Assembly (NCBI GenBank): GCA_963738245.1
Contig: CAVTWB010000012.1
Coordinates: forward strand, 295,921 to 359,920
Source: an uncultured Verrucomicrobiae bacterium
GTDB taxonomy: Bacteria > Verrucomicrobiota > Verrucomicrobiia > Limisphaerales > UBA11358
DNA: 64,000 bases
Reading direction: 5' to 3'
Position numbers and translations under genes: made by a program. This document shows, piece after piece, positions 1 through 28,759 of this stretch (within the stretch, counting starts at the first letter, position 1; the number at the start of each line of letters is the position of its first letter). The notes below the pieces were generated by a model. It had not been told where the DNA came from and did not search any database. It saw only the letters and a program-made list of their open reading frames with translations.

Positions 1-19
1 GTTGTGACAGCGGCATAAT

Positions 20-1454: not shown

Positions 1455-2702
1455 CTATTCAACTTTTAGTTTGGCTTCCAGCAAGCGCGGCCGGCGCTCG
1501 TGCAACGGCAGCCAGATGCGGAACGTCGTGCCGCGACCGACATGGCTTTCCAGTTCGATGCGGCCGTTATGGGCGCGCACGATGCGCTGCACAATCATCA
1601 GACCGAGGCCGCTGCCTTTTTTCTTGGTCGTGTAAAATGGTTCGAAAATCCGGTTGATCTGCTCCTGCGGAATGCCGCCGCCGTTGTCGGCCACGCTCAC
1701 CCAAACGCCGTCGTCGTTCTCGCCGGTTTGCAGCGCCAGCGTGCCGCCCCTCGTCATCGCCTGCATCGCATTTTTGACAAGGTTGACCAGAACCTGCTGC
1801 AATTGCATCGGGTCAACCGGCGCGGCGGCCAGCCGTCGCGCAAGTTTTGTCGTCACCGTCAGCCCGCGATTTTCCAGTTCCGGTCGCAGCAATTCCAAAG
1901 TTTTTTCGACCACGTCGTTGAGCGAATGCGGCTGAAGCTGCGGCGGCACGGGCCGGATCGCCTGGAGAAATTGCGTGATGATGTAATCGAGCCGGTTGAT
2001 TTCGCCCTTCGCCACGTCGAGATATTTTTCGAGCCGTCCGGAGATGTCCGCCGTGTCGGCTTCGACCACCAGATTCTGCGAACGCGGACGCGAAACCCGT
2101 TTTGAGCCGTCCGCGCCGGCCTTGAGTTTTTTCACCTCGCGCTCCATGAGCTGCAGATGAATGTGCAGCGCGTTGAGCGGATTGCCGATTTCGTGCGCCA
2201 CGCTCGCCGCGAGCAGCGTGAGCGCCTGCACCCGCTCGCTTTCGATGGCTTCAAAAGTTTTTTGCCGCGCCTCGGTCGCGTCGTGCAAAATCAGCGCCAC
2301 GCCGGAGCTGCCCTTCGCCTCGCCGTCGAGCGGCGCGGCGTAAAGCCGCAGAAAACGCGGACGCGGATAACTTACTTCGAACTCGTGCCGCAAGACGTGC
2401 GCGCCGCCTTCGCGGTCGAAGCGCGAAATTTTTCCCCAGTCCAGTTCCGGCAGGAAGCGTCCGACCGGCTGGCCTTCGTCACCAGCCTGCAAGCCCAGCA
2501 GGCCGGTCACGGCCTGGTTGAAATAAACGATGCGCCCCTGCTCGTCGGCCACCAGCACGCCGTCTTCAATCGTGTTGAACAGGGTTTCGAGAAAATTTCG
2601 TTCGTGCGCCAGCCGCTGAACCACCGTCTGCAACCCTTCCGCGTCCAGCCGCCCGATGCGGCCTAGCACTTTGTCGAGAAAACTGGATTTGATTGAAGCC
2701 AT
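1455..2702 (-). CDS. sensor histidine kinase (PAS-like + HisKA + HATPase_c), partner of the downstream response regulator
   Basis: 415-aa ORF. H-box AASVAHEIGNPLNAL, N-box LVNLVKNAMQAM, G-boxes DNGGGIP and GSGLGL. Sits directly upstream of the RR on the same strand. Confidence 0.85.
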   Translation of the reverse strand: MASIKSSFLDKVLGRIGRLDAEGLQTVVQRLAHERNFLETLFNTIEDGVLVADEQGRIVYFNQAVTGLLGLQAGDEGQPVGRFLPELDWGKISRFDREGGAHVLRHEFEVSYPRPRFLRLYAAPLDGEAKGSSGVALILHDATEARQKTFEAIESERVQALTLLAASVAHEIGNPLNALHIHLQLMEREVKKLKAGADGSKRVSRPRSQNLVVEADTADISGRLEKYLDVAKGEINRLDYIITQFLQAIRPVPPQLQPHSLNDVVEKTLELLRPELENRGLTVTTKLARRLAAAPVDPMQLQQVLVNLVKNAMQAMTRGGTLALQTGENDDGVWVSVADNGGGIPQEQINRIFEPFYTTKKKGSGLGLMIVQRIVRAHNGRIELESHVGRGTTFRIWLPLHERRPRLLEAKLKVE

Positions 2703-2796: not shown

Positions 2797-3522
2797 TCAC
2801 TTGCCGTTCGCCGTGAGCGACAGGAAAATTTCTTCAAGCTGGCCGGATCTGCCACTTTGCCGCCGGAGTTCTTCGCGGGTGCCGACGGCAATCAGTTTTC
2901 CGCCGTGAATGATGCCGATGCGGTCGGCCATTTCCTCGGCGATTTCCAATTGGTGCGTGGAGACCAGCACGGTGACGCCCGCGCGCGAACGTTCCTTGAA
3001 CACGTCCTTCACCACGCGCGCGTGCTGCGGGTCGAGGCCGACCATCGGCTCGTCAATCACGAACACTTCCGGCTCGTGCAGGAGTGCGGACACGATGGCC
3101 ACGCGCTGGCGCGTGCCGTGCGAAAGACCTTCGAGCGGGCGGTTCACAAATTCCGCCAGATGAAACCGCGTGATCAATTCCTGCGCGTTTTTTTCGATGT
3201 GCGTGTCGGACATCTGAAACAACTGGCCGGTGAAGCGGAAAAATTCCCATCCAGTCAGCTTGTCGTAGAGAAATGGAAAATCAGGAACGTAGGCGATGTG
3301 CCGGCGCGCTTCGAGCGGCTGCGCCTGCATGTCAAACCCGCAGACGCGCGCGCAGCCGGAGGTGGGCTTCATCAGGCCGGCGAGCATTTTCAGCGTGGTC
3401 GTCTTGCCGGCGGCGTTGGGTCCGAGCATGGCGAAAAATTCGCCGCGGGGAATTGTGAGCGAAATGTCGCTGACCGCCGTGAGATCGCCGAATTTTTTTA
3501 CGAGGTTGACGAGTTCAATCAT
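2797..3522 (-). CDS. ABC transporter ATP-binding protein (ABC-2/DrrA-like)
   Basis: Walker A GPNAAGKTT, signature LSHGTRQRV, Walker B VFVIDEP. Start trimmed to MIELVNLVKKFG (M54 of track ORF 2797..3681) because the upstream gene stops at 3533. Confidence 0.85.
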   Translation of the reverse strand: MIELVNLVKKFGDLTAVSDISLTIPRGEFFAMLGPNAAGKTTTLKMLAGLMKPTSGCARVCGFDMQAQPLEARRHIAYVPDFPFLYDKLTGWEFFRFTGQLFQMSDTHIEKNAQELITRFHLAEFVNRPLEGLSHGTRQRVAIVSALLHEPEVFVIDEPMVGLDPQHARVVKDVFKERSRAGVTVLVSTHQLEIAEEMADRIGIIHGGKLIAVGTREELRRQSGRSGQLEEIFLSLTANGK

Positions 3523-3532
3523 GCGGCGGCCT

Positions 3533-4336
3533 TCAATTTTTGCTCCATTCGTCGAGCGAGGCGGTGAAGCCGTCGGGCAGTTCGACCCGCAAAATTTCTC
3601 CGAGCGTGCTGGCGTAGATGACGATTGAATAGTCGAGCATGTGGGTTTCCAGACGATAAACGGACACCGGCTCGTTGCCAATCTTCAAACGGTCGCGGTG
3701 CGCCTCCCACACGACCGGCTGGGAGAACGCCGCCGATTCCTCCGGCAGCATGGGCAGTTCCACTGCGCCCAGCACGCCGCCGCCGAAATTTTCGGTGAAT
3801 TCGTGCAGCAGCGCATTGGGATCCTCCAAATCCGCAAAGGCAATCTCGCGCTCAATGGTGCCGCCCTCATTGGTGATTTTCAATTGCACCATCTGGTTGG
3901 TGGCGACCGAATGAATTTCAATCGCGGCGGTGTGCGAGGATAATTTCAGGTTCAATTCGCGCCACTTCCGGTTGGGATAAAAGCTCAACCGCCCGTCGAA
4001 CCGCACCCGGTTGGTGAAATCGCCGAGGCTCGTGTTGCCGTTCAGCCGGATCTGGTAGCCGGCGCGGGTGATGACACCCTCCGGCGGCGGCTTGTCCTCG
4101 TCGAGCTTGGCCATCTCCGTCTCAACACTTGTCGAAAATTCGCAGAAGCCCGAGCGTTCGCCGTCCTGGTAGATGCTCAGGGACGAGGCGTCCGGCGCGG
4201 TCAAAATTTTCCGCCAGACCAGCGCCACCGGCACCGGCTCCTCGTTGCCGCGCGAACCGTATTCCATGCGCCACAACAAAACATTCATCGTGACCCAGAA
4301 CACCGCGATGGCAACAAATGGAGCGCGCGAAATCAT
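3533..4336 (-). CDS. hypothetical protein with N-terminal membrane anchor
   Basis: 267-aa ORF. N-terminal hydrophobic helix APFVAIAVFWVTMNVLLW. Tightly packed with the ABC ATPase. No motif recognised. Confidence 0.5.
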   Translation of the reverse strand: MISRAPFVAIAVFWVTMNVLLWRMEYGSRGNEEPVPVALVWRKILTAPDASSLSIYQDGERSGFCEFSTSVETEMAKLDEDKPPPEGVITRAGYQIRLNGNTSLGDFTNRVRFDGRLSFYPNRKWRELNLKLSSHTAAIEIHSVATNQMVQLKITNEGGTIEREIAFADLEDPNALLHEFTENFGGGVLGAVELPMLPEESAAFSQPVVWEAHRDRLKIGNEPVSVYRLETHMLDYSIVIYASTLGEILRVELPDGFTASLDEWSKN

Positions 4337-4343
4337 GTGAAAG

Positions 4344-5090
4344 TCACGGCGGCGGCAGATTGATGGGCTGGCCGACGCGCAATTTCTTCGGATTCAACCC
4401 CGGATTGGCCGCGAGCAGCGCGTCCAAGTTCAATTTGAACTTGCGCGCGATGGCGGCCGGCGTTTCGCCGGCGGCAACAACATGGGTGCGCGGCCTGGCC
4501 ACCGGCGGATTTGCCGCCGCGGTCGTCGCCTGCAACGGGATTGCCGTGGCGGTGGATTGTGGCGCGACATTCATTGGCGGCGGCGAATTTGTTTTCATTG
4601 CCACCATCTGGCTGGCGTAATACGCGCGCCACTTGTCCACTTCATCCTGCAACTGCCGGTTTTTGTCGGCGAGCTGCTGGAGCTGCTGCTGCGCGGCCGG
4701 CGAACTTGGCAGTTGCATTACGTCGGTTGCGAGCTGCTGTTTGCAGGTGTTGATATGCTGGTTGACAATGTCCGCATTGGGGGCGTTTGGGTCATAGCGG
4801 AGGTATTGCTGGTAATGATAAATGGCGGCGGCGGGATTGGATTCCTTTTCACTGTAAAGCATGGCGAGCTGGTAATGCGCCGGCACCGAATGCGGATTCA
4901 CCTCGAGCGATTCCTCGAACGCCTCGACCGCGCCCGCATAATCCATCGCGTTGACGCGGTTCTGGCCGAGCACGAAATGCGGCTCCTTCTCATCATCCGC
5001 CATGCTTTGTCCAGTCGGTTCACAACCGGCCAGCGTGACGCCGAGGCAGACGGCGCAGACACTGAAAACGGCGCGATTCCAAAAATCCAT
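4344..5090 (-). CDS. lipoprotein with TPR region and C-terminal LysM domain
   Basis: Lipobox VTLAGC after MDFWNRAVFSVCAVCLG. TPR-like YAGAVEAFEESLEVNPHSVPAHYQLAMLY. LysM-like HVVAAGETPAAIARKFKLNLDALLAANPGLNPKKLRVGQPINLP. The track ORF start (5306) was trimmed because it reads across the tRNA on the other strand. Confidence 0.7.
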   Translation of the reverse strand: MDFWNRAVFSVCAVCLGVTLAGCEPTGQSMADDEKEPHFVLGQNRVNAMDYAGAVEAFEESLEVNPHSVPAHYQLAMLYSEKESNPAAAIYHYQQYLRYDPNAPNADIVNQHINTCKQQLATDVMQLPSSPAAQQQLQQLADKNRQLQDEVDKWRAYYASQMVAMKTNSPPPMNVAPQSTATAIPLQATTAAANPPVARPRTHVVAAGETPAAIARKFKLNLDALLAANPGLNPKKLRVGQPINLPPP

Positions 5091-5184: not shown

Positions 5185-5269
5185 GCGCGCGTGGTGGAAT
5201 TGGCAGACACGCCAGACTTAGGATCTGGTTCCGCAAGGATTGGAGGTTCAAGTCCTCTCGCGCGCACCA
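5185..5269 (+). tRNA. tRNA-Leu (anticodon UAG), CCA encoded
   Basis: Hand-folded. Acceptor GCGCGCG/CGCGCGC, U8, 3-bp D stem GTG/CAC. Anticodon arm CCAGA-CTTAGGA-TCTGG (anticodon TAG). Long variable arm. T arm GGAGG-TTCAAGT-CCTCT. Ends ACCA. Confidence 0.9.
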
Positions 5270-5358
5270 TTCCACCAATCTGGCTGTTTGGGCCAGGCGG
5301 CATCAAGCCTGGCTGGCATGACGTCTGCTCATGGACAACAAGGACTTATCCGCGCCAA

Positions 5359-5380: not shown

Positions 5381-5502
5381 TGAATTCTGGATAACTTCGA
5401 ACACATGTTATGAAACGAAACAGTTGTCATGGAAATCGCACAAGCTTTAAACTTGTGGCGCGGCGTCCTGTTTTCGGACGTTCCGTCCGGAAAAGTCATT
5501 CC

Positions 5503-6930
5503 ATGAAAACCACAATCTCGTTGGGTTTATGCGCCGCTTTTGCCGCAGTCTTTATTACCGCCTGTGCCCACAACAAGCCGGCCAAGGCCGCCGCCGATGC
5601 TGCTTTTGAAAGGCAATTGAACGAGGCGTCCGGCACAAACTCCATAACTACGGAGACCCCGGAAGCGGAATCTGTCACAACAAATATTGTGGCCGCTCCA
5701 ATTGCCGAAGCTGCCACAAATGAGGTTCCGGCGGCTGCCGTTTCGACTGTCGAAACCGCGACCAATGAGATTCCGTCACCGGCTGTTCCAGTTGTCGAAG
5801 CGTCCACGAATGAAGCGCCGGCTACTGCCGCTGCCACTGCTGAAGCTGTGACAAATGAAACTTCCGTTGCGGCGGCTCCGGTTGCCGAAGCTGCCACGAA
5901 TGAAGCTCCGGTGGTCGCCGCTCCGACTGCCGAAACCGCGACCAATGAGACTCCGGCGCCGGCTGTTCCAGTTGTCGAAGCGTCCACGAATGAAGCGCCG
6001 GCTACTGCTGCTGCCACTGTAGAAGCTGTGACAAATGAAACTCCCGTTGCGGCGGCTCCGGTTGCCGAAGCTGCCACGAATGAAGCTCCGGTGGTCGCCG
6101 CTCCGACTGCCGAAACCGCGACCAATGAGATTCCGTCACCGGCTGTTCCAGTTGTCGAAGCGTCCACGAATGAAGCGCCGGCTACTGCCGCTGCCACTGT
6201 AGAAGCTGTGACAAATGAAACTCCCGTTGCGGCGGCTCCGGTTGCCGAAGCTGCCACAAATGAGGTTCCGGCGGCTGCCGTTTCGACTGTCGAAACCGCG
6301 ACCAATGAGATTCCGTCACCGGCTGTTCCAGTTGTCGAAGCGTCCACGAATGAAGCGCCGGCTACTGCCGCTGCCACTGTAGAAGCTGTGACAAATGAAA
6401 CTTCCGTTGCGGCTGCCCCAGTTGCTGAAACTTCCTCGAATGAAATTCCGGCGGCGGCGGCTCCGACTGCTGAAACAACGACAAATGAAACTCCGGCTGG
6501 GGTTGCTCCGGTTGCCGAAGCTCCGACGAACGCAACTCCGGCGGTAGTTGCGGCGGTTGTTGAAGCCGCCACCAACAATGAAACTCCGGTTGCGGCGGCT
6601 CCGGTTGCCGAAGCACCCACCAATGAAGTGCCTGCGGTTGTGGTTCCTGCCACCAAGACGCCAACGGTTGCCACAGCAACACCCAGGCCAGCCCAGGCAC
6701 CCGCCGTGAATAAACCGGCCAGTCCACCGGCGACAGTGAAGCCGGCCAATCAGCTTGTGACCGTCAGTGGCGAAATCTTTAACAATCCATACGTCGAAAA
6801 AGTTGATCCGGACGGAATCATTGTCAGCTATACGCCGGCCCAAGGCGGGATGGCGATCACCAAGGTTTATTTCTACGAACTTTCCGACGCCATGCGGAAG
6901 CGATACGCACCCGATCCGGCGAACCAATAG
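5503..6930 (+). CDS. repetitive Ala/Thr/Pro/Glu-rich lipoprotein
   Basis: Start trimmed to MKTTISLGLCAAFAAVFITAC (lipobox). About 25 copies of a 15-aa motif (..AAPVAEAATNEAP..). Non-repetitive C-terminal domain QLVTVSGEIFNNPYVEKVDPDGIIVSYTPAQGGMAITKVYFYEL. Confidence 0.7.
   Translation: MKTTISLGLCAAFAAVFITACAHNKPAKAAADAAFERQLNEASGTNSITTETPEAESVTTNIVAAPIAEAATNEVPAAAVSTVETATNEIPSPAVPVVEASTNEAPATAAATAEAVTNETSVAAAPVAEAATNEAPVVAAPTAETATNETPAPAVPVVEASTNEAPATAAATVEAVTNETPVAAAPVAEAATNEAPVVAAPTAETATNEIPSPAVPVVEASTNEAPATAAATVEAVTNETPVAAAPVAEAATNEVPAAAVSTVETATNEIPSPAVPVVEASTNEAPATAAATVEAVTNETSVAAAPVAETSSNEIPAAAAPTAETTTNETPAGVAPVAEAPTNATPAVVAAVVEAATNNETPVAAAPVAEAPTNEVPAVVVPATKTPTVATATPRPAQAPAVNKPASPPATVKPANQLVTVSGEIFNNPYVEKVDPDGIIVSYTPAQGGMAITKVYFYELSDAMRKRYAPDPANQ
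5701..6420 (+). repeat. four near-identical 180-bp tandem units (built from 45-bp subunits) inside the lipoprotein gene
   Basis: 5761-5820, 5941-6000, 6121-6180 and 6301-6360 are near-identical. 5701-5760 matches 6241-6300, and 5881-5940 matches 6061-6120. Confidence 0.9.
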
Positions 6931-17287: not shown

Positions 17288-19693
17288 ATGGAACAACGGA
17301 TTTTGAATCTGCTCGCGCAAAAGGACTACGTCCCATTGAGCGCGGAAAATTTGCAGCGGCACCTGCGCGTGCCGCCAGATCGCGAGCCGGAGTTTACCCG
17401 CGCACTCCGCAAGCTGGAGCGCGACGGCGCAATTGCGCTCATCAAGGCCAGCCGCTACGTCCGCACCACCGACGCCGATTTGATTCCCGGCCGCATCCGC
17501 ATGAACCGCGCCGGCAAGGGTTTTCTCCAGCCGGACGATTCGAGCCTCAAGGAAATCGCCATTGCCGAAAGCGCCACCGGCACGGCGTTGCACGAGGACC
17601 GCGTGCTGGTGCGCCGCGCGCCGCGCGGCAAATATTTTCGCGAAGGCGACCAGGAAACCGGCACGGTTGTCCGCATTCTCGAACGCACCCGCACGCAGAT
17701 TGTCGGCACGCTCCAGCAGGGCCGCGCGTCGCTGCACGTCATTCCCGACGACCCGCGCATCCCGCACGACATTCTCGTGCCGCCGGCGCACGACGTGGGC
17801 CGGCCCGCGCGCATCGGCGACAAGGTCGTGGTCGAGCTGCGCGAATGGGAATGGCGCAATTCCAATCCCGAAGGTGAAATCGTCGAAGTCCTCGGCGCGC
17901 CCGATGAAGAAGGCGTGGACATGCTGTCCGTGCTGCGCCAATACAATTTGCCGCTGCATTTTCCCAAGGCGGTGCTCGCCGAGGCGCACGCCATCGGCTC
18001 GGTGGTTCACGAAAAGGATCTGGCCGGCCGTCTCGATTGCCGCGCGCACAATGTCGTCACGATTGATCCCGACGACGCGAAGGATTTCGACGACGCGATC
18101 TGTCTCGAAAAAGTTTCGCCGGAGCAATGGCGGCTGTGGGTGCACATCGCGGACGTGTCGCATTACGTCAAGCCCGGCACCGCGCTCGACGCCGAGGCGC
18201 AGAAGCGCGGCAACTCCACCTATCTCGTGGACCGCGTCATCCCGATGCTGCCGGAGGCGTTGAGCAACGAACTCTGCTCGCTCAAGCCGAACGTGGACCG
18301 GCTGACGAAGTGCGTGGAATTTCTCGTGTCGCATGACGGCCGCGTGTTGAGCACCAAGTTTCATTCCGCCGTCATCCATTCGCAACGCCGCTTCGCCTAC
18401 GCGCAGGTGCTGGAGATTTTGCAACGCGCGCCGACGGACGATCCGATTGAGCAGATGCTGCATCAGGCGCACGAGCTGGCGCAAAAAATCCGCCGCGCAC
18501 GCTTCAAGAACGGTTCGCTCGAACTGGATTTTCCCGAAATGAAAATCCGGCTGGACGAGCAGGGAAAAATTTTGCGCATCGAGAAAAACGAGAACGACGT
18601 GTCGCACCAGTTGATCGAGGAATACATGCTGCTCGCCAACGAGGCCGTCGCAACGCGCCTGATGAGCTTGCAGACGCCGGCGATTTACCGCATCCACGAG
18701 GAGCCGGACGCGCGCCGCCTGCAGGAATACCGGCAGGAAGTTCTGGCGTATCACGTCCCGTGCGGCAACCTGAACCAGCCCGCCGAGGTGCAGAAGCTGT
18801 TGTCGAAGCTCGGCACGCTGCCGATCGGCGCGGCGCTGAAGATCGGCTTTCTCAAATCGCTCATGCGGGCGCGTTACGCGGTCGAGCCGCTCGGCCATTA
18901 CGGGCTGGCCAAGAAAAAATACACGCACTTCACCTCGCCCATCCGCCGCTACGCCGACCTCGTGGTGCATCGCGCGTTGTTTGACAAAAATGCGCCGAAG
19001 GCAGGCGCGCTCAAGCCGATTGCCGAACACATTTCCGTCACCGAACGCAATTCCGCCGACGCCGAGCGCGACAGCAAGGACGTGAAGTTATACGCATTCC
19101 TGAACGCGCAGCTCGAATCCGGCGACCCGGTGAAATATCCCGCGCTCGTGACCGACGTGCGGAACTTCGGTTTCTTCGTGGACGTGCCCGGCCTCGCGAT
19201 GAGCGGCCTCGTGCCGTTGTCGCTGGTGGAGGAGGATTTTTTTGTGTTCGACGAGGCGCGGCGCAACCTGGTGGGCCGCCGCACGCGCCGGATCATCCGG
19301 CTTGGCGACAAAGTCACCGTGCAGGTCGCGCGCGTGGACAAATTCAAGAAGCAGGTGGATTTCCAACTGGCCGTCGCGGAAGGCAAAGCATCTTCGATGC
19401 GGCCACCGGCACCACGGCCAAATGCCGCGCGTCCGCAGCAATTTCGGCAGCAGACACGAAACATCAGCAATCATCGCGGCAGGATTCAAAACGTCCGCCG
19501 TCGTCAATCGGAAGTTCGCGCCGGCAGGATTCGCGTCCGGGCAAATCGCAGAATGCCCGCCAGTCAAACGAGCGTCCGCAAAACCCCAAGCCGGCCGCTG
19601 TTTCAAACTTCCGGCTCCCAGTTTTCCACCACGCAACGCCCGCTGATCAAAGCCAGCAGCAGCCGGAGTTTTTCAAAGCGCCGTCCGCGATAG
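17288..19693 (+). CDS. rnr: ribonuclease R
   Basis: RNB catalytic core VTIDPDDAKDFDDAI and YLVDRVIPMLPEALSNELCSL. S1 domain GFFVDVPGLAMSGLVPLS. Basic C-terminal tail. The start could be 17246 or MEQRILNLL at 17288. Confidence 0.9.
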   Translation: MEQRILNLLAQKDYVPLSAENLQRHLRVPPDREPEFTRALRKLERDGAIALIKASRYVRTTDADLIPGRIRMNRAGKGFLQPDDSSLKEIAIAESATGTALHEDRVLVRRAPRGKYFREGDQETGTVVRILERTRTQIVGTLQQGRASLHVIPDDPRIPHDILVPPAHDVGRPARIGDKVVVELREWEWRNSNPEGEIVEVLGAPDEEGVDMLSVLRQYNLPLHFPKAVLAEAHAIGSVVHEKDLAGRLDCRAHNVVTIDPDDAKDFDDAICLEKVSPEQWRLWVHIADVSHYVKPGTALDAEAQKRGNSTYLVDRVIPMLPEALSNELCSLKPNVDRLTKCVEFLVSHDGRVLSTKFHSAVIHSQRRFAYAQVLEILQRAPTDDPIEQMLHQAHELAQKIRRARFKNGSLELDFPEMKIRLDEQGKILRIEKNENDVSHQLIEEYMLLANEAVATRLMSLQTPAIYRIHEEPDARRLQEYRQEVLAYHVPCGNLNQPAEVQKLLSKLGTLPIGAALKIGFLKSLMRARYAVEPLGHYGLAKKKYTHFTSPIRRYADLVVHRALFDKNAPKAGALKPIAEHISVTERNSADAERDSKDVKLYAFLNAQLESGDPVKYPALVTDVRNFGFFVDVPGLAMSGLVPLSLVEEDFFVFDEARRNLVGRRTRRIIRLGDKVTVQVARVDKFKKQVDFQLAVAEGKASSMRPPAPRPNAARPQQFRQQTRNISNHRGRIQNVRRRQSEVRAGRIRVRANRRMPASQTSVRKTPSRPLFQTSGSQFSTTQRPLIKASSSRSFSKRRPR

Positions 19694-19817
19694 TTTTTGA
19701 TGGGTCCGAAAGCAGGCTGGCGATTTATTTTTACATCCGCCGCGCGCGCCGCCGCCATGCAGGCGATTTACGAAGCCGCCCGCGAACACAAGTGGGTCAG
19801 CGTCGTTTGGGTCTGCC

Positions 19818-20005
19818 GTGTCTCGAAGAGACGAAACGATAATAGCCCGGCGTTTTAACGCCGGGGATGCCGTGGAATATCCGAGTCCCGCAGAGACGAC
19901 CGAAAACGTCTGCCGTCCCTGCGGGACTCGAATTGTTTATGGATTGTTCCCGGCATTAAAATGCCGGGCTATTTTCAGGGGTTCCTTCGGAACCGGCTTT
20001 TGCAG
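19818..20005. repeat. REP-like hairpin cluster
   Basis: CCCGGCGTT-tt-AACGCCGGG, AGTCCCGCAG..CTGCGGGACT, CCCGGCATT-aa-AATGCCGGG. Confidence 0.55.
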
Positions 20006-20368
20006 CTAATACACCAGCACCAACACCGCCGCAGCCTGCGCCGACTTCACCACATCCTCAAACTTCTCATCTGCCGTGTTCGGCGCTTTGAGTTTGGCAT
20101 CCACGTCCGGCACCGATTCCAGGAAGCTCAACAGCAGGCTGCTCTTGACCGCGTAATTCACATTCTCCGGCAACGCCCCGCTCGCCGCCAGCGCCGTGAC
20201 GCATCCAGCTTGGCCGACACGATGCTGATGACGTTGCCCCGCTCATCCACCAGCGCCCCGCCCGAATTGCCCGGCTGCACCGGCACGCTGATTTGAAAAT
20301 AGCGCGGGTCATCCCCCACGCCGGACAGCGACGCGATTTCCCCCTTGGCCAGTTTGGGCGAAAATAAT
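20006..20368 (-). pseudogene. 3' fragment of a trypsin-like (S1C) serine protease; 5' half missing and one internal frameshift
   Basis: Own translation: KLAKGEIASLSGVGDDPRYFQISVPVQPGNSGGALVDERGNVISIVSAKLDA, then a frame change near 20195-20206 to TALAASGALPENVNYAVKSSLLLSFLESVP..VLVLVY-stop. No His/Asp catalytic half upstream. Confidence 0.65.
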
Positions 20369-20376
20369 TTGAAAAT

Positions 20377-21075
20377 TCAGTCTGATGGATTGTTTTCGAA
20401 CTTCTGCTTAAACACATCAATCCATTTTTCTTCATTCCTATAAACTGTGGAGGGATTGATTTCGATTGTAGCAATGTCGCGTAATTTCTCTTTAATTTTT
20501 TCAAACCGAGCACTCGGCATTGTCTGACTGATTGTAATTTTTGTGATTATCGTCTCAATGTTATCAATCTTTATCTCATGGTGATTTTTATCTCCCTCCC
20601 AAATGACTCGGAATTCCTTTTCAAATCTATAAGGCCATCGTTTTATAAATGGAAGCATTTCAACGCAGTCATCTATTGTTCCATCATTAATTTCTTCAAA
20701 TCTCTTATACACAACTGAACCGAATCTCAAATTATCACCATCGTTTTTGCGTGAAAATAACAATTTTATTAGTTCGGTTTTGTCGAATTCAATGCAGCAT
20801 CCAGATATTCCATTTGCAAAAGCCTTCCAGTGATGAATTGTTTCGTGTTCCTTAAGAAAACATAGTGCTAAAAGACTTTTTGCAGGTTCAGATTGGCTGC
20901 AACTACTTATCTTTCTTTTTCGATAAATCTCCAAAAGTTCTGTATCGTTTTCATCATCCCAAAATTTTGGATCTGAAAAAACAAGACTCTTTTTTTTCAA
21001 CATGCGCAACAATACTGGAAGCGTTGTAAATCTGTTTAATTTTGTGAAAGCGGTTTCGGTTGACATATAGCGCAA
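20377..21075 (-). CDS. DUF2971-like protein
   Basis: N-terminal LNRFTTLPVLLRMLKKKSLVFSDPKFWDDENDTE and central LCFLKEHETIHHWKAFANGISGCCIEF resemble DUF2971 signature blocks (from memory, no HMM run). Confidence 0.55.
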   Translation of the reverse strand: MRYMSTETAFTKLNRFTTLPVLLRMLKKKSLVFSDPKFWDDENDTELLEIYRKRKISSCSQSEPAKSLLALCFLKEHETIHHWKAFANGISGCCIEFDKTELIKLLFSRKNDGDNLRFGSVVYKRFEEINDGTIDDCVEMLPFIKRWPYRFEKEFRVIWEGDKNHHEIKIDNIETIITKITISQTMPSARFEKIKEKLRDIATIEINPSTVYRNEEKWIDVFKQKFENNPSD

Positions 21076-21078
21076 ATG

Positions 21079-22221
21079 TTATGGAGCTGGAAACTGAACT
21101 GCCACGTTAGAAGAATTTGCTGTGATGAGGTTGTCATTACTCAACATCACTTGCATCTCCGATTTTCCGTCTGAATGAACTCGAACCAGCCAAAAATACT
21201 CTTCAGTCTTGTCTGAAACTTCTCTTTGAGCTTGCGCTACTAAAAAAAATTCGCCTTTTGTGGGTAATTGAAATAAAAACTTTCCATCTGCATCCGTTTT
21301 AGCTAATGCGATTGGAGTTGGCAAATTGCCAAAATAAATTGGGGTTGTGGATACCAACTCTGCAACTCATCTCGTATGGTTTGCAATTCGTCTGTTACAG
21401 TTTTCAATTCGTCGTTTATGGGTTCCAATGAGCATCTAAAGGCAATTTTTGGTTTGTTAACTGGCCTTCTAAACGAGGAACTAACTCGGCTAATTTGGCT
21501 TCTAAAACCTCTTGAGAATTTGTGTAGCCATCGGATTCGTCACTGGTCTTTTGCCATTCTTGGCGCAAGCGGTCTTCTTCGCTAACTTGCTTTAAATAGT
21601 CAGGATATAATCGCTCATGTGACGAGTCCCATTTCGACTGCATTTCCAAAATCGTTTTTTTCTTACTTTCCAGCTTTTGCGCCTCCTCTTGCATCGAGGC
21701 CAATAAAGAACTATCACCATGTTCGCTATACCAAACATAGCTTCCAAAGTGGTTTCATTACACCGTAAATCTGGCCGGTTAAATCCCACCTACTTTCTTT
21801 TTATCGGACCAAATCTTGGCATATTGGATTTTCAAGTGTCCAGTCAAAAGTAGCATTATTATATTTCTCTCTGATGCGTTCTTGTTGTTGCTTTATTTCA
21901 TTTGTAGATTTGTCTTCCAAATCGGCCTCGTCTTTTTCCAAATCAGCTTTCGTCTTTTCCAAGCTATCTCTCTTATTTTCTAAATCGTTTTTTGATTTTT
22001 TTTAATCAGCCCTGTTTTTTTCAAGTAGGCCGTAGTTATTGCATTGCATGATTCAATTTGCTGTTGGTCAAAAATGGAAATTGGAACAAGATAACGCTTT
22101 AGATTTTCACCGCTTTTCGTTACAATGAAAACACTTCCGTCAATTTTTTCTTCCCTCGGGGAACAGCCAGCAAAAGCAATGAAATAAGAAAAAGACCAAT
22201 AAACAATCTTGCAAATTTCAT
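21079..22221 (-). pseudogene. decayed lipoprotein gene (signal peptide, coiled coil, carboxypeptidase-regulatory-like C-terminus) split over at least 5 frames
   Basis: MKFARLFIGLF at 22221 joins ..YFIAFAGCSPREEKIDG (lipobox) only via a frame change in a T-run. KNDLENKRDSLEKTKADLEKDEADLEDK, MASMQEEAQKLESKKK.. and TDADGKFLFQLPTKGEFFLVA follow in other frames. Confidence 0.55.
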
Positions 22222-22372
22222 ATTGATTTGCAGATTGAAACGCCAATTGCCCCAATCGTCCATCCCAAAATGAAAACCGGAAAAGAGACCGCTGCCCCTG
22301 CGGAATTCAGATTGCGCTGTCAATAAAACAGACAACCCTGTTCCAACCTTTGGACACCGGGGCCATTTCCAT

Positions 22373-22640
22373 GACCATGGAAAACATTTCGTTGACCATG
22401 GAGCTTGGAAATGGTCATCGGAAACTTTCGTTGACCATCGGAGCCGTGGAAATGGTCATGGAAATCTTTTCCTTGACCATGGAAACTTTCAATGGTCATG
22501 GAAATGTTTTCGTTGACCATGGGAACCTTTTAAATGGTCATGGAAATGGTTTCGTTGATCATGTAAACCGTTTACATGGTCATGGAAATGTTTTCCTTGG
22601 TCATGGAAACCTTTTGGATTTCTTGGTCATCGAAATGGCC
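22373..22640. repeat. 13 tandem units of about 21 bp, consensus G[AG][CT]CATGGAAA(C/T)nTTTCnnT
   Basis: Core starts at 22373, 22394, 22413, 22433, 22454, 22475, 22494, 22515, 22536, 22557, 22578, 22599, 22625. Units alternate TGACCAT and its complement ATGGTCA. Confidence 0.85.
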
Positions 22641-22908
22641 TGAAACCCTCCCCCCCCTTGCTTCAAAGCGGGATTTTGCCATCACAACACATTTTTAACC
22701 AGTAAAACGGGCGTTTGCTGACGTTTACGAAACATTTATAGAAGTAATTACGATAAGGAATTAACAGATTAACAGGCTGGATGTGGAATGGTGCAAATGT
22801 GAATGGCATAGCCTGATGCTAACGAGCAGTCATTAAGGTTCAACAACTGAACCGAGGAAAAAATAAAAATGAAATAAAGATTAAAACACGAAATCGAAAA
22901 TAAAAACT

Positions 22909-23531
22909 ATGAATGTGAAACCTGCCATCGGATGGCTTAATACCGACAGCGACGAACTGCTGATCAATGATGTCAGCGTGGTCTTGAAGGCCCTGGCCGA
23001 CAACGTCGCCATCTACAAACTGCCCGACCCGCCATTGGCGGACGTCCAGCTCGCGCTGGACAATTCTCCACGGTGGTTCACATGGTGGGCCGCAGCCCGG
23101 CGGACAACATCAACAAAGACAACCTGCGCCTGGTGCTCACCAAGCTCGTGCGCTCGCTTTCGTATTATGTGGCCAAGGCGTGCAACGGCAGCATGGCGAA
23201 CCTGATTTTGAGCGGGTTTCCGCCCCAAAAGAGGCAAGGGCCAGCCCGTTGGCATACCGGCCCAGCCGCAAGGCCTCGTGGTCAAGCATGGCGACCCATC
23301 TCGGCGAGCTGGCGGCCAGGGTCAACCCGGTCTTTGGCGCGGTCCATCTACAACTACCGCCTGACGGCGAACACGCCCGGGGCGGTGCCGGTGATCGTGC
23401 AGGACACGGCGTCCATCCACACGTTTGAGGGCCTGATTTCCGGCGTGAAATACACCATTGATGTCAGTGCGTCGGGCACGGGCGGCACCATGAGCGACTG
23501 GAGCGGTGCGATCAGCCTGACCGCCGATTAA
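22909..23531 (+). pseudogene. decayed gene for a protein with a C-terminal fibronectin-type-III-like domain (about 4 frame changes)
   Basis: MNVKPAIGWLNTDSDELL..LALDN, then (about 23064) FSTVVHMVGRSPADNINKDNLRLVL..SGF, then KGQPVGIPAQPQGLVVKHGDP, then GELAARVNPVFGA, then IYNYRLTANTPG..GVKYTIDVSASGTGG..SDWSGAISLTAD-stop, using all three frames. Confidence 0.55.
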
Positions 23532-23576
23532 ACATTCTGTCTCCCATGCGCGCGCCGGATCAGTTCCGGCGCGTTT

Positions 23577-26500
23577 TTATTCACCATCATTGTTGCCGCC
23601 GTTTTTCTTTTCCCAACTGCGCCGCGCCTTTTCCGGCAGGCTGGTGTCCACTTTCGCGTAGTAAGTCTCCTCGCCGAACAGCTTGTTGGCGGCGTGCTCC
23701 AGTTCCAGCGACGGCGCGACGCTGAACCGCTCGTTCGTGTCCATGAAAACCGTTCCGCCGCCCGGTCGCATGAAGCACAACAGCAACGGGCATTTGCCGG
23801 GATGCGCGGCGACGAGTTCCTGAATCTTGATCATGTCGTCCGGCTGCAGATGCGCCGAGTGCAGGCGCAGATGAACCTGCTTGGTGTATTTTTTCGGCGC
23901 GTCGGTGAGCGGCAGGATTTCCTGCGGGAAAATCTTCGGCTTGTCCTCGCCGGTGCTGACTTCGCCGATGACGAGAATCGCCTTGTTCGCTTCGAGCAGC
24001 GGACGGAACTTGTCGTAGTCGTTCATCACGAGCAGTTGCACCGAGCCTTCCAAATCCTCCAGCGTCACCATCGAATACGGCTTGCCGGATTTTTTGGAGA
24101 AGCCGTGCGTGACCGCCGCGATCATGCCGCCGATGCGCGTCAAACTGCGGTTCGGCAGCTCGGCGAGCTTCGCGGTGTTCGTGAGCGAATATTTTTCCAG
24201 CAGCGGCACCAGCGGCGTCAGCGGATGGCCGGTGACGTAAAATCCGAGCAGCTCTTTTTCGTGCGCGAGCAGTTCGTGCTGCGGCCATTCCGGCAGATTG
24301 GAAATCGCCTCCGGCATCGGCGGCGCTTTTTCTTCCAGCGCGCCGAAGAGCGAGCTTTGCCCTTTTTGCTTGTCGGACAAAATGCTCGCCGCGCGCGCCA
24401 TCGTGCGCTCGATTTGTGCGAACAGCGTCGCCCGCGACTGGCCGAAACAATCGCACGCGCCGGTTTTGATCAATGCTTCCAACGGTTTTCGCGTGAGCGT
24501 GCGCCCGTCCACACGCTCGCACAAGTTCGGAAAGCGTCTTGAATTTTCCGCCTTCGTTGCGCGCCTTCAAGATGGTTTCAACGGCGGCCTCGCCCACGCC
24601 CTTGATGGCCGCGATGCCGAAACGGATGCGCTGTTGTGATAGTGGGACAGGCGTCCCGCCTGTCGTGTTGCCTTGGTATTTATCTTTGGAACTGGACAGG
24701 CGGGACGCCTGTCCCACTATGGCTGCGGGCAGGCTCGCAGTCATTCCTGCTCCGAGTCGGAAATTTTTTCCAGACAAACCGGCCTTGCTTGGATTTTCCT
24801 GAATATAGTGTCCGAATTTTTCCAGGCTGGCCTCATCGCGGACAATGTGATCGAAAGATTCGTCCTGCCAGAATTCGCCTTCGCGCCCCAGAAACTTGTT
24901 GGCCTCGTGGGCCGTAAATGATTTCCAAGCGTGCAAAATATCGGAGAGCTTGTGTTCCATCAGCGGCCGGACGATGAGGTGGACATGGTTTGGCATGATG
25001 ACGTAGCTGCCCAAAACATAGCGCTCGCCATCGAAATGGCGCAAGGCATTCTCGACCATGTCAGCCACATCGGGATTTTTCAGCCAGCACGCACCGTGAG
25101 CGTCATCCAACTGCGACTCCATCTGTTCGCGGAATTCTTCCATGACGGGTTCGGAGGCTGCACCGGCGGTGCGCACCGCCGCTTCGCGTTCCTGCTTCCA
25201 TCGGATGTAAACTTCGTTCGGCAGCGAATCAGCCAGCCGGAATGTTACGAAATAGGTTGCCCCGTCCTGCCGCCAATGCGGCAGGTGCCGGCTTTCAATG
25301 CTCGCAGGACGGGATTTGTCGAAGGGCGTGAACGGCAGTGGGACGGGCTGTAGTGGGACAGGCGTCCCGCCTGTCGAGTTCGTGTTTTGGAGTTTTCCTT
25401 TTTCAAAATCTTCTTTGGAACTGGACAGGCGGGACGCCTGTCCCACTACCGATGCGGGCGCAAAAAACACGCCGCTCTCGTTCACGTCCGGGCCGAGCAC
25501 CTCGATGTCGAACTCGCGCGCCTCGGCGATGTATTCGGCGAGCTTGTCCGTGTTCGCCATGTCGTTCGTCATCATGGCGCAGAAAAATTCCACCGGATAA
25601 TTCGCCTTCAGATACGCGGTCTGATACGCGACGATGGCATACGCGGCGGCGTGCGATTTGTTGAAACCGTAGCCGGCGAATTTTTCCAGCAAGTCGAAAA
25701 TTTGGTTTGCCTTCGTCTTCGGAATATTGTTTTTCTCGTGGCAGCCCTTGACGAAATCCTCGCGCTGCTTGGCCATTTCCTCGACCTTTTTCTTGCCCAT
25801 CGCGCGCCGCAGCAAATCCGCCTTGCCGAGCGAGTAGCCGGCGAGCAACTGCGTCGCCTGCATCACCTGCTCCTGATAAATCAGGATGCCGTAGGTCTCC
25901 TTGGAAATGGATTCGAGCAGCGGATGCTCGTATTTGATCTCGATCTCGCCGTGGCGGCGCTTGATGAAATCAGGAATCAGATCCATCGGGCCGGGCCGAT
26001 ACAGCGCGACGAGCGCCGTGATGTGCTCGACGGAACTGATCTGGAATTTTTTGCACAGGTCGCGCATCCCGCCGGATTCCAACTGGAACACGCCGAGCGT
26101 TTCCGCGCGGTTCAGCAGGTCGTAGGTTTTTTTGTCGTCGAGCGGCAACTGGTCAATGTTGATCTGCACGCCGTGCGTTTGCTTGACCATCTCGCAGGTG
26201 TTGCGGATGACGGTCAACGTTTTCAGCCCGAGAAAATCCATCTTCAGCAGGCCGAGGTCGCCGACGGGATTCATCGCGTATTGCGTGACGATGCCGCCAT
26301 GTTCGTCCAGCTTGAGCGGCAGCAAATTCACCAGCGGCTGGTCGCCGATGACCACGCCGGCCGCATGAACACTGGCATTGCGCGTGAGGTCTTCGAGGAT
26401 GAGCGCGGTGTCAATCAGCTCGCGCGTGACTTCTTCGGTCTCGTAAGCCTCCTTGAATTCCGGCGACTGCTTGAGCGCCTTCGTCAAATCCATTTTCAGA

Positions 26501-28759
26501 TCGAACGGAATCATTTTCGCCAGCCGGTCGCAGTCGCCATACGGCAAACCCATCACGCGGCCGACATCGCGCACGACGGATTTTCGCGCCCATCGTGCCG
26601 AACGTGATGATCTGCGCGACAGAATCATTGCCATATTTTTTGCGGACATATTCGATGACGTCAGCGCGGCGGTCGTCGGCGAAATCAATATCAATATCGG
26701 GCGGATTAACGCGCTCGGGATTGAGAAATCGCTCGAACAGCAGGCCGTAGCGGATCGGATCCACGTTCGCGATTTCGAGCAGGTAGGTGACAATCGAACC
26801 GGCGGCGCTGCCGCGCGCCACGCAGGCAATGCCCTGGCTGCGGCCATAGCGGATGAAATCGCCGACGATGAGAAAGTAGGAAATGAAACCCGTCTTCTCG
26901 ATGACCGTGAGTTCGAGCTGCAAGCGGTCAATGACCGTTTTGACGGCAGCGGCAACGGCGGGATCGTTGGTTAGTGGCACAGGCGTCTCGCCTGTGTGTT
27001 TCTGTTTTTCATCGCACAGGCAGGACGTCTGTGCCACTAAACCGCCGCCGACACGGTATGCCCCTTCGCCCAAACTTGCTTTCTTGGGATTATCTTGAAT
27101 ATACCGGCCAAACTTTTCCAACTGTTGCTCGTTTCTGACGATGTGGTCGAAGGATTCCGGCTGCCAAAATTCTCCCTCACGATTCAGCAGCTTGTTGGCT
27201 TCTTTCGCAGTGAACGATTTCCACGACTGGAGAATGTCAGATAATGTGTGTCCCATCGCTGGCCGCACCAAAACATGGACGTGATTGGGCATGATGACGT
27301 AGCTGCCCAACAAATAGCGTTCACCATCAAAGTGACGCAGCGCAGCCTCCACCATTTTGGAGACGCCAGAATCGCGCAGCCAGCACTCGCCGATGCCTTG
27401 ATCCAAGTGTCGTTCCAACTTTTTCTCGCATTCTTCGGCAATTTTCCCGGCCAGCTCCTGTTTCTCCGCGTCGGAAAGGTTGGCGGCCTGCTTCGCTTCG
27501 CGCAAAGCGGCGTCACGTTCATCACGCCATTGTTTGAAGACTTCCTGCGGCAGTGAATCATCCAGACGGAACGTTACAAAATATGTTGCGCCTTCCTGCT
27601 GCCAATGTGGCAGGGAACGTGAATGAATGCTTGCCGGACGGGTTTGGTCAAACGCGGTGAACGGCATTAGTGGCACAGGCGTCTCGCCCGTGTGTTTCTG
27701 TTTTTCGTCACACAGGCGGGACGCCTGTGCCACTACATTATACGTCGGCAGCCGCTTCGGATCATCAATGCCCGTGACGACAAATTCTTTTCCTTCCGCC
27801 TTCGCGTGAATCGTGTAGCGCGTGAACAGTCCTTCCGCCAGCCATTGCCGCAAAAAACCTTCGCGCGTGAAATGTTCCGGCGGATGAAACACCGGATAAT
27901 GCAGCTGGCCGAACTTGATTTCCAAATTGCATTTCTCGGCAACCTCCATCGTGTTCTTCACCGCCTCCGGCACCTCGGCGAAACGCGCCTTCATTTCGTC
28001 TGCGCTGCGCAGATAAAACTGTTCCGGCACATAGCCCGCGCTCATGCGCTTGGGGTCGCTCAACAGGGATTGCGTGCCGATGCAGACGAGACAATCGTGC
28101 GCGTGCGAATGGCTTTTCTCGATGTAATGGACGTCATTCGTCGCGACGAGCTTCAGGCCGAATTCCTTTGGCCAATTTGAATCAACTGCTTGATTGACCT
28201 TGGCCTGTTCGGGAATGCCGTGGTTTTGGAGTTCGAGGAAAAAATTTTCCGCGCCGAGCGTCTGCTTGAAGAAATCCACCGCATCGCGCGCCTTGTCAAT
28301 TTGATCCTTCATGATCAAATCGGGAATCTCGCTGGCGAGACAACCGGACATCGCGATCAGACCTTCGCTGTGCTGCGCCAAAATTTCCTTGTCAATGCGC
28401 GGCTTGTAATAATAGCCCTCCAGGTGCGCGGCGGTCGTGAGCTTGATGAGATTTTTGTAGCCGGTCTCGTCCTTCACCAGCAGGCCGAGATGATGATACT
28501 TGTCGCCCTCGACTTTTTTGCGTTCCAGCCGCGAGCCGGGCGCGACATAAACCTCGCAGCCGATGATGGGCTTGATGCCTTTCGCGCGCGCGGCCTGATA
28601 AAACTCGATCACGCCGTGCATCGCGCCGTGGTCGGTGATGGCGAGCGCGGGAAATTTCAGCTCATGCGCCCGCTCCATCAATCTGTCCAAACGGCACGCG
28701 CCATCGAGCAACGAATACTCGGTGTGCAAATGAAGATGGACAAAGTCAGCGTGCGACAT
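23577..28759 (-). CDS. dnaE: DNA polymerase III alpha subunit, interrupted by two in-frame HUH-transposase cassettes and two 1-nt frame breaks
   Basis: PHP domain HLHLHTEYSLLDG. GFISYFLIVGDFI, ARGSAAGS, FLNPERVNPPDIDIDF, ITFGTMGAK|SVVRDVGRVMGLPYG, FNKSHAAAYA, IAAIKGVGEAAVETIL, and OB/C-terminal region. Assembled from track ORFs 26411..28759, 23587..26955 and 23577..24524. Confidence 0.9.
24642..24717. repeat. REPIN-like nested palindrome, type A (cassette 2, DnaE-distal side)
   Basis: Perfect 23-nt arms GTGGGACAGGCGTCCCGCCTGTC / GACAGGCGGGACGCCTGTCCCAC with a 30-nt loop. Each arm is itself a hairpin GACAGGCG-nnn-CGCCTGTC. Confidence 0.9.
25353..25446. repeat. REPIN-like nested palindrome, type A (cassette 2, DnaE-proximal side)
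   Basis: Same perfect 23-nt arms with a 48-nt loop. A partial extra copy AGTGGGACGGGCTG lies at 25338-25351. Confidence 0.9.
26974..27037. repeat. REPIN-like nested palindrome, type B (cassette 1, distal side)
   Basis: GTGGCACAGGCGTCTCGCCTGTG .. CACAGGCAGGACGTCTGTGCCAC. 23-bp stem with 1 mismatch and 2 G-T pairs. Loop of about 18 nt. Confidence 0.85.
27670..27733. repeat. REPIN-like nested palindrome, type B (cassette 1, proximal side)
   Basis: GTGGCACAGGCGTCTCGCCCGTGTG .. CACACAGGCGGGACGCCTGTGCCAC. Differs from the 26974 copy at 5 of 64 positions. Confidence 0.85.

Follow-up and report, generated by a model that had tools for sequence, protein, structure and literature searches.

A helically phased 21-bp tandem array upstream of a predicted sigma-54 promoter and an fn3-domain gene in Verrucomicrobia-like bacteria

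Every sigma-54 promoter needs an AAA+ enhancer-binding activator. The known enhancers, such as the NtrC sites at glnAp2, carry two to five upstream sites, usually about 80-200 bp or more from the -24/-12 element, in which a -24 GG and a -12 GC are separated by exactly 10 bases within TGGCAC-N5-TTGCW. Other series of repeated sites include the ARG boxes of ArgR operators, which are 18-bp palindromes 2-3 bp apart with the sequence TNTGAATWWWWATTCANW, and the centromere-like arrays of F sopC (12 units of 43 bp that each contain an inverted repeat) and of parC in R1 and pSK41. Here we describe a tandem array of 21-bp units in a 64-kb stretch of DNA from an uncultured Verrucomicrobiae bacterium (contig CAVTWB010000012.1; 64,000 nucleotides, hereafter the window), upstream of a gene whose protein carries an fn3 domain (the fn3 gene). 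Based on sequence comparison, the array is most likely a non-coding cis-regulatory element of this plus-strand gene at 22909, conserved in Verrucomicrobia-like bacteria; the original prediction, made from the letters of the window, had assigned it to an "ancestral element", and it belongs instead to the conserved upstream region of the gene. Its closest described counterparts are the sites of enhancer-binding proteins, which bind as dimers to repeated 16-18-bp dyad sites, usually about three (PMC4894688). GcsR has three 18-bp dyad sites at gcvH2, upstream of an RpoN promoter (PMC4894688), and NorR has three enhancer sites at norVW (PMC2831303).

The array, its promoter and its gene

The array is a genuine repeat (Table 1). 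Tandem Repeats Finder (TRF) called a single array at 22376-22615, with a period of 42 bp (5.8 copies, score 247) and likewise with a period of 21 bp. The core GRYCATGGAAA occurs eight times in the window against 0.19 expected, all eight within 22366-22609, and with up to three mismatches allowed there are 13 cores (22372, 22393, 22412, 22432, 22453, 22474, 22493, 22514, 22535, 22556, 22577, 22598 and 22624). TRF and the mismatch scan together confirm the 13 tandem units that had been predicted, and the core-to-core spacings (21, 19, 20, 21, 21, 19, 21, 21, 21, 21, 21 and 26) are reproduced exactly. The units are imperfect 18-bp palindromes, TTTCnnTG[RY]CATGGAAA, each followed by 3 bp, with TTTC and GAAA arms flanking the core and AC or GT as the central dinucleotide of the palindrome. 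Over the 13 units the order is AC, AC, GT, AC, GT, AC, GT, AC, GT, AT, GT, GT, GT; because AC and GT units alternate, the array has a 42-bp A/B higher-order period, which breaks at both ends. The alternation of TGACCAT with ATGGTCA, described in the original prediction for consecutive units, holds for the middle units, to which TGACCA/TGGTCA is confined, and fails at both ends. Nor does it define the arrays across lineages: the 42-bp period is specific to the window lineage, and the units of the related loci L009, L013, L023 and L031 have mostly the same orientation. The low-GC setting (0.33-0.43 versus about 0.6 elsewhere) and the C8 run beyond the array are both real. The arms 22361-22382 and 22619-22640 are 86% complementary, and RNase R and dnaE flank the array.

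The closest relative, L008, is a metagenome contig with the same locus at 95.5% identity to the window. It has the same 13 units in perfect 21-bp register; all odd spacings of the window (19, 20, 19 and 26) are 21 there, and the flanking genes are intact, coding for a 387-aa lipoprotein/coiled-coil protein, a 229-aa DUF2971-like protein and the 205-aa fn3 protein. Comparison with window positions 19000-25500 gave 51 gap openings in 6.2 kb, and the lipoprotein gene, the fn3 gene and dnaE are frameshifted in the window; tblastn aligned the intact L008 fn3 protein to 22909-23295 and 23061-23528, in two different frames. Because L008 is intact and in register, and because dnaE itself carries frameshifts in the window, the odd spacings and the "two decayed genes" of the original prediction, whose frameshifts are indeed present, are most likely indel errors of the assembly, which has an indel-prone, long-read look. 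Recent decay is the less likely source of both.

Homologous arrays were gathered by pattern scans of genome and metagenome collections, and the loci of more distant fn3-gene homologues, from 77% down to 53% identity, were fetched as well. The scans gave L009 and L013 (on one contig of an uncultured Verrucomicrobiae metagenome-assembled genome, MAG), L023, L024, L031, L034 and L037. Other scan matches (L010-L012, L014-L022, L025-L030, L032, L033, L035, L036, L038 and L039) were set aside on their core spacing, mostly not 21 bp (about 18-23 bp); two that were inspected are unrelated, L030 being a His/Asp-rich repeat that is coding and L039 a satellite of 21-bp period within low-GC DNA. Linkage was counted over homologues whose upstream sequence reaches about 500 nt or more, which sampled 12 lineages, and a 21-bp tandem array stands upstream of the fn3 gene in all 12, in some as degenerate remains. 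Array and gene occur together in the window, L008, L024, L051, L013, L031, L043-46, L048-50, L052, L053/54, L040 and L041/42, and the array-bearing loci span 58-100% protein identity to the L008 protein. Wherever downstream sequence suffices, except at L009 and L023, an fn3-gene homologue follows the array, with 270-293 nt from array end to ATG.

The period is 21 bp in every lineage; the unit sequence drifts (e.g. TTTTTATGGTCATGGAAACCA, CTGCCTTGGTCAAGGAAACGT, TTTCCCAGTAGTAAGAAATGG, ACCCAGTACACGCCGTACTGA, ATCCATGGTCATGGATGCTGC and CATTGATGGAGCAGCGTAGGT). Copy number ranges from 9 to about 21 units with the register kept (10, 13, 14, 19 and about 21), for array sizes of 190-440 bp, and L008 and L024, whose arrays are orthologous, have 13 units each in exact 21-bp register. 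Units are more similar within an array than between lineages, that is, they evolve in concert. Unit positions 7, 8, 11 and 13 (TG..C.T) are invariant in the orthologous arrays of L008, L024 and L034, and positions 2-5 and 19-21 are often changed; this invariance amid variable positions argues for base-specific recognition. At the distal edge, a box GG(G)GYCATTTCC is kept where the units have diverged (L043, L048, L051, L052 and L013). Within the distal box, GGCCATTTCCATGACC is an inverted copy of the B-type (TGGTCA-core) unit, and this inverted unit, which marks the distal end of the array in nearly all lineages, is more conserved than the units. An inverted repeat, GTGTCC-N9-16-GGACAC, is conserved beside the box, and the distal element CGTCCATCCCAAA recurs exactly in L008, L024 and L051, each time at the corresponding position, and variants of it occur in L034, L041, L031 and L009/L013. 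The related array sites are chromosomal and their location varies by genome (neighbours RNase R/dnaE, ftsZ/ftsA, gatCA and hsp90), with no conservation of the distal-side neighbour genes across the related loci. Short-read contigs typically stop inside the array (L034, L037, L043-46 and L054), and the array explains the breaks of short-read assemblies just upstream of the fn3 gene.

The two arrays that lack the gene have settings of their own. The array and about 560 bp upstream of it are duplicated on one 391-kb Verrucomicrobiae MAG contig (L009 1-730 and L013 4190-4825); the L009 copy has 13 units, is followed by neither an fn3 gene nor a -24/-12 element, and has an integron-type integrase gene (3116-4645, minus strand) ~2.4 kb away. 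L023 carries an orphan array of 11 units (2203-2481, minus strand, locus coordinates), followed in its orientation by an XRE-type helix-turn-helix open reading frame (ORF) and a transposase fragment, with no fn3 gene.

The fn3 gene belongs to a family of 172 homologues of ~205 aa, all annotated "hypothetical", which begin MNxKPAIGWLN... The fn3 domain of the protein encoded at 22909 was matched by Pfam. In the AlphaFold model (predicted local distance difference test, pLDDT, 90) a four-helix N-terminal domain is joined to a C-terminal fn3 sandwich, and structural matches were obtained for the fn3 half only.

Between the array and the ATG, GG-N10-GC in a sigma-54-like context is present in 10 lineages, with 8-10 or more of the 12 consensus positions. 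In 8 of the 10 this -24/-12 element (TGGCAY-N6-TGCT) starts 103-114 nt ahead of the ATG, and the distance from the array end to the -24 element, 156-179 bp in L008, L051, L013, L043, L052 and L053 and 164 bp in the window, falls in the usual enhancer range. TGGCAYN6TGCT has one other occurrence in the window, TGGCAT-N6-TGCT, which has no 21-bp array, and this argues that the arrays are specific to the fn3 gene and not to all sigma-54 promoters. Candidate sigma-54 promoters for the divergent lipoprotein gene (start 22222, minus strand) were rejected on sequence inspection as wrongly spaced or too near the ATG. A truncated sigma-54 enhancer-binding protein is encoded at the start of the window, with GAFTGA at nt 725 and the Walker A motif GESGTGK at nt 866; its DNA-binding end lies off the window, and the 64 kb contain no rpoN gene.

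Judged by its substitution pattern and by missing start codons, the array is non-coding. The original prediction found both strands free of stops; one plus-strand frame is indeed open over the whole array (22350-22643), but no minus-strand frame is, the longest minus-strand ORF being 22320-22520. The L008 and L024 arrays align without gaps at 85.7% identity, and their 39 differences fall 16/12/11 by codon position in the GHGN frame, with 3 synonymous versus 27 non-synonymous codon changes, whereas the adjacent fn3 gene has 11/13/35 and 30 versus 22. The flat spread in the array means that no frame has a third-position excess. The plus repeat frame lacks any ATG, GTG or TTG start in L008 and ends one unit short of the array end in L009 and L013, and in L013 the minus repeat frame has no start codon. 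The repeat "peptide" follows the DNA, reading GQGNVCL in L023 and VVRNGFP in L043 and running into stops in L041. Pfam matched neither the plus- nor the minus-strand repeat ORFs, exact look-up of the 97-aa repeat ORF returned no record, and gene callers put short ORFs over the arrays inconsistently, on either strand. The His/Gly heptads are thus, as had been suspected, a by-product of the repeat.

Proposed role of the array and alternative explanations

We see an even chance that the array is a helically phased binding array acting as an enhancer or operator of the sigma-54 promoter of the fn3 gene. This proposal draws on anatomy and conservation, and both the binder and the sign of regulation are predictions. 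Since 21 bp make two turns of B-DNA, the core of each unit (TG[RY]CAT plus GGAAA in the window lineage) faces the same side of the helix, and gain or loss of a unit leaves the rotational phase between box and promoter unchanged. Towards the gene, the proposed layout would run from the distal box through 9 to ~21 units, about 160-180 bp of AT-rich spacer, the -24/-12 promoter and an A-rich leader of ~90 nt to the ATG. A sequence-specific regulator, for which an AAA+ enhancer-binding activator is the prime candidate, would occupy one unit each and oligomerise along the array, and the bound complex would reach the promoter through looping of the AT-rich spacer of about 165 bp. We infer that protein binds the units, that the binder is an enhancer-binding protein and that it activates rather than represses. 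In support, the host encodes an enhancer-binding protein and carries the second TGGCAT-N6-TGCT element. Among the candidate roles first proposed, it is the operator lattice for a regulator that survives; replication iterons and a partition site find no support. Somewhat more tentatively, at a little less than even odds, a clade of Verrucomicrobia-like bacteria may control the fn3 gene via a "super-enhancer", in which 9 to ~21 self-homogenising phased sites would carry a one-faced filament of a regulator, probably a sigma-54 activator, and the sequence of the sites and the specificity of the protein would evolve together across lineages.

Several observations weigh against an enhancer or operator. 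No fn3 gene follows the arrays of L009 and L023. The window has a frameshifted fn3 gene and a -24/-12 spacing one base too long, and in L031 and L048 the array and the -12 TGC are kept and TT replaces the -24 GG. No enhancer-binding-protein signature was found beside the array in any related locus. The unit cores differ strongly among lineages, so a binder would have to co-evolve, and there are 9-21 sites here versus 2-5 in known enhancers. Finally, dyad symmetry is significant in the B-type unit of the window (14/21 self-complementary, P=0.02) and in the L052 unit (18/21, P=0.003) but not in the units of L009, L023, L043 and L053. A universal dyad-symmetric operator was rejected, the symmetry being non-significant in about half of the lineages.

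It is unlikely that the array acts through DNA structure instead. It would then be a helically phased spacer without a sequence-specific binder of its own, in which the bend or bendability of each unit sums in one plane and brings the distal box, or the GTGTCC...GGACAC inverted repeat, to the sigma-54 promoter, with gain or loss of units again phase-neutral. The 21-bp period, exact in all lineages though more than half of the unit positions change, the better conservation of the distal box, the register retained over the range of copy numbers, and the phased A3/T4-5 tracts in window-, L009- and L043-type units are consistent with this. However, A/T tracts are missing from the units of L048, L052 and L053, which rules out A-tract curvature as a conserved property, and the TG..C.T positions invariant within the window lineage point to base-specific recognition.

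A transcribed repeat RNA, from either strand, is improbable. It could form serial 21-nt hairpins that bind or titrate a protein through GGA loops, as in CsrB or RsmZ, or a long structured leader or antisense RNA. Folding is more stable than in shuffled sequences in all arrays (z -2.2 to -13.9, mostly lower on the plus strand), but this is a weak test, since shuffling destroys repeats and inflates such z-scores for any tandem repeat. L009-type units form AUGGU-CAUGGAA-ACCAU hairpins with GGA in the loop, but this hairpin is lost in L023 and the L048 units have no GGA, and a CsrA-sponge RNA of the CsrB/Rsm type was dropped for lack of this conservation. Terminator-like hairpins with T runs lie on the minus strand just beyond the distal box in L013 (4532-4546) and L052 (2397-2418) and could end an antisense or an upstream-gene transcript; however, neither a conserved promoter upstream of the box nor a conserved terminator past the array was found. 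Rfam searches of the window region and six related loci gave only miRNA-precursor look-alikes that scored far under threshold and come from self-complementarity. In addition, the array precedes the sigma-54 promoter and is therefore outside the leader of the gene.

We rate as similarly improbable a neutral minisatellite, which would have arisen once upstream of the ancestral gene and been homogenised by unequal crossing-over, with no function. Concerted evolution, the orphan arrays L009 and L023 and the varying copy number fit such an origin. However, the array is kept in every lineage sampled, down to 58% protein identity, with unchanged period and position and similar size, core positions are invariant amid variable ones in the orthologous arrays, and the degenerate arrays of L040 and L041 retain the 21-bp core spacing.

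Iterons or a centromere-like partition site of an integrated plasmid or phage remnant are very improbable and already contradicted by the context. In form, 13 direct 21-bp repeats in a low-GC patch do resemble iterons, F sopC or parC. However, the comparison with plasmid and phage databases that had been suggested along with this reading, run as a distant blastn against 72,556 plasmid and 50,697 phage records, gave no match, and a pattern scan of viral contigs gave 7 matches, each of only one or two chance units. Neither rep nor par genes (Rep, ParA/B, ParM/R) nor an integrase were among the genes called 3-5 kb either side of the related loci with gene calls, the exception being an integrase-type gene ~1 kb upstream in L053. 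The chromosomal housekeeping neighbours vary, and the constant partner is the fn3 gene.

Least probable of all, and already contradicted, is a translated His/Gly-rich heptad-repeat protein (GHGNxFx), possibly metal-binding, which the original prediction had kept in view: in the window, L008, L009 and L013 the plus frame is open over the array, and in the last two it begins with GTG and reads GHGNHFY repeats, but the codon-position spread and excess of non-synonymous changes, set against the fn3 gene, the absent start in L008, the early stop in L009 and L013, the unconserved peptide and the blank Pfam result speak against it.

Features of the locus and its surroundings

Table 1 Coordinates of features in the window, with units and promoter elements of related loci
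Locus	Feature	Position	Strand	Remarks
Window	Conserved distal element CGTCCATCCCAAA	22257..22269	+	Single copy in window
Window	Distal boundary box GGACACCGGGGCCATTTCCATGACCATGGAAA	22352..22383	+	Takes in first, nearly perfect palindromic unit
Window	Tandem array TTTCnnTG[RY]CATGGAAAnnn	22366-22640	+	13 units, nominal 21 bp
Window	Spacer, array to promoter	22641..22803	+	About 164 bp, AT-rich
Window	C8 run	22649-22656		Beyond array
Window	AT-rich segment within spacer	About 22745-22776		Matches conserved GATTAGTTAYTA-type motif of relatives
Window	Sigma-54-type -24/-12 element TGGCATAGCCTGATGCT	22804..22820	+	One base over functional spacing (11, not 10)
Window	Small inverted repeat GGTTCAACAACTGAACC	22837..22853	+	Presumed A-rich 5' leader; kept in L008, L024, L051
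Window	fn3 gene	22909..23531	+	~205-aa protein, N-terminal helical domain and C-terminal fn3; frameshifted in window
Window	Lipoprotein gene	21079-22255	-	Frameshifted
Window	dnaE	23577-28759	-	Frameshift splits near 24524 and about 26955
Window	Insertion in dnaE	24637-25473		In-frame, ~280 codons
Window	Truncated sigma-54 enhancer-binding protein	About 1-1100	-	Window start
Window	tRNA-Leu	5185-5269		Just upstream of second sigma-54-type element
Window	Second sigma-54-type element TGGCATGACGTCTGCT	5314-5329	+	81 nt before 506-aa ORF
Window	506-aa ORF	5410-6930	+	
Window	Coding tandem repeat in middle of 506-aa ORF	5687-6637		45/90/180 bp; TRF score up to 1313
Window	Acido-Lenti-1 RNA motif	19819-19865	-	
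Window	Acido-Lenti-1 RNA motif, inverted copy	19949-19994	+	
Window	Short 21-bp repeats	21375-21429 and 21915-21962		2.3-2.6 copies
L051	Window-type unit			19 copies
L052	Unit ATCCATGGTCATGGATGCTGC			About 11 copies
L053/L054	Unit CATTGATGGAGCAGCGTAGGT			Up to about 21 copies, spanning N gap
L048-50	Unit ACCCAGTACACGCCGTACTGA			9 copies
L043-46	Unit TTTCCCAGTAGTAAGAAATGG			At least 9 copies, contig-limited
L040, L041/42	Degenerate arrays, cores TKGGAAAT and CATATGGMAAAT			About 9-10 copies
L008, L024	-24/-12 element TGGCACACCTGATGCT			
L013	-24/-12 element TGGCATCGGATGTGCT			
L051	-24/-12 element CGGCATAGGGAGTGCT			
L043	-24/-12 element TGGCATAGGCGATGCT			
L040	-24/-12 element CGGCATAAAATCTGCT			
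L047	-24/-12 element TGGCATGAGGACTGCT			
L052	-24/-12 element TGGCACTCCGCTTGCT			
L053	-24/-12 element TGGCAACACAATTGCT			
L041	-24/-12 element TGGCGTGGGTTATGCT			

The insertion in dnaE carries an IS200-like Y1 transposase (RAYT-like) domain (Pfam, E 2.9e-7) and lies between the conserved DnaE motifs ...GVFFAPA and QRIRFGIAAIKGVG. It is flanked by two repeats resembling repetitive extragenic palindromes (REP-like), which translate to VGQASRLSSSK and have their first codons at 25446 and 24720. The short 21-bp repeats in the lipoprotein gene are coding heptads of its minus-strand coiled coil and have no relation to the array. The two inverted copies of the Acido-Lenti-1 RNA motif, which lie between RNase R and the low-GC patch, scored 32.2 and 34.8 bits against an Rfam gathering score of 37, and a hairpin similar to this motif, cccggcattgaaatgccggg, lies ~100 nt upstream of the array in L031.

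Comparison with described repeat systems

We know of no bacterial enhancer of such multiplicity and tandem architecture, and our literature searches found no description of such strict tandem 21-bp arrays. If the enhancer or operator reading is correct, the array would represent a new architecture of this kind, a phased minisatellite of up to about 21 sites kept over long evolution at constant spacing from the promoter, and it would flag the widespread ~205-aa fn3 protein as a regulated target. It would also offer a test case for the assembly of AAA+ activators or other regulators on DNA, for the co-evolution of cis-sites and trans-factors under concerted evolution, and for the tuning of expression by repeat copy number without loss of helical phase.

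Plasmid iterons (R6K, RK2, pPS10; 17-22 bp direct repeats) are, like the array, tandem direct repeats of ~21 bp in helix phase. However, the array is chromosomal, has more copies than typical iteron origins, and comes without a rep gene, an AT-rich unwinding element with DnaA boxes, or plasmid or phage homology. With F sopC and parC it shares a long tandem series with an inverted repeat per unit, and the 42-bp period of the window recalls sopC; in contrast to them, it has no nearby partition operon, is tied to a sigma-54 promoter and the fn3 gene, and is unrelated in sequence. The ARG boxes come close in dimensions, as the unit is an 18-bp imperfect palindrome plus 3 bp, with a centre-to-centre distance of 21 bp that puts adjacent sites on one helix face, but ARG boxes are paired, overlap sigma-70 promoters, repress, and have an unrelated sequence. 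Similar to the sigma-54 enhancers of NtrC, NorR and GcsR, the array precedes a -24/-12 promoter by roughly the customary distance, with repeated, partly dyad-symmetric sites of ~18 bp and an AT-rich segment that could aid looping. It differs from them in that its dyad symmetry is not universal and, above all, in its architecture: where those enhancers have two to five separately placed sites, here 9 to ~21 contiguous sites in strict 21-bp register evolve in concert as a minisatellite, and an inverted unit closes the distal end.

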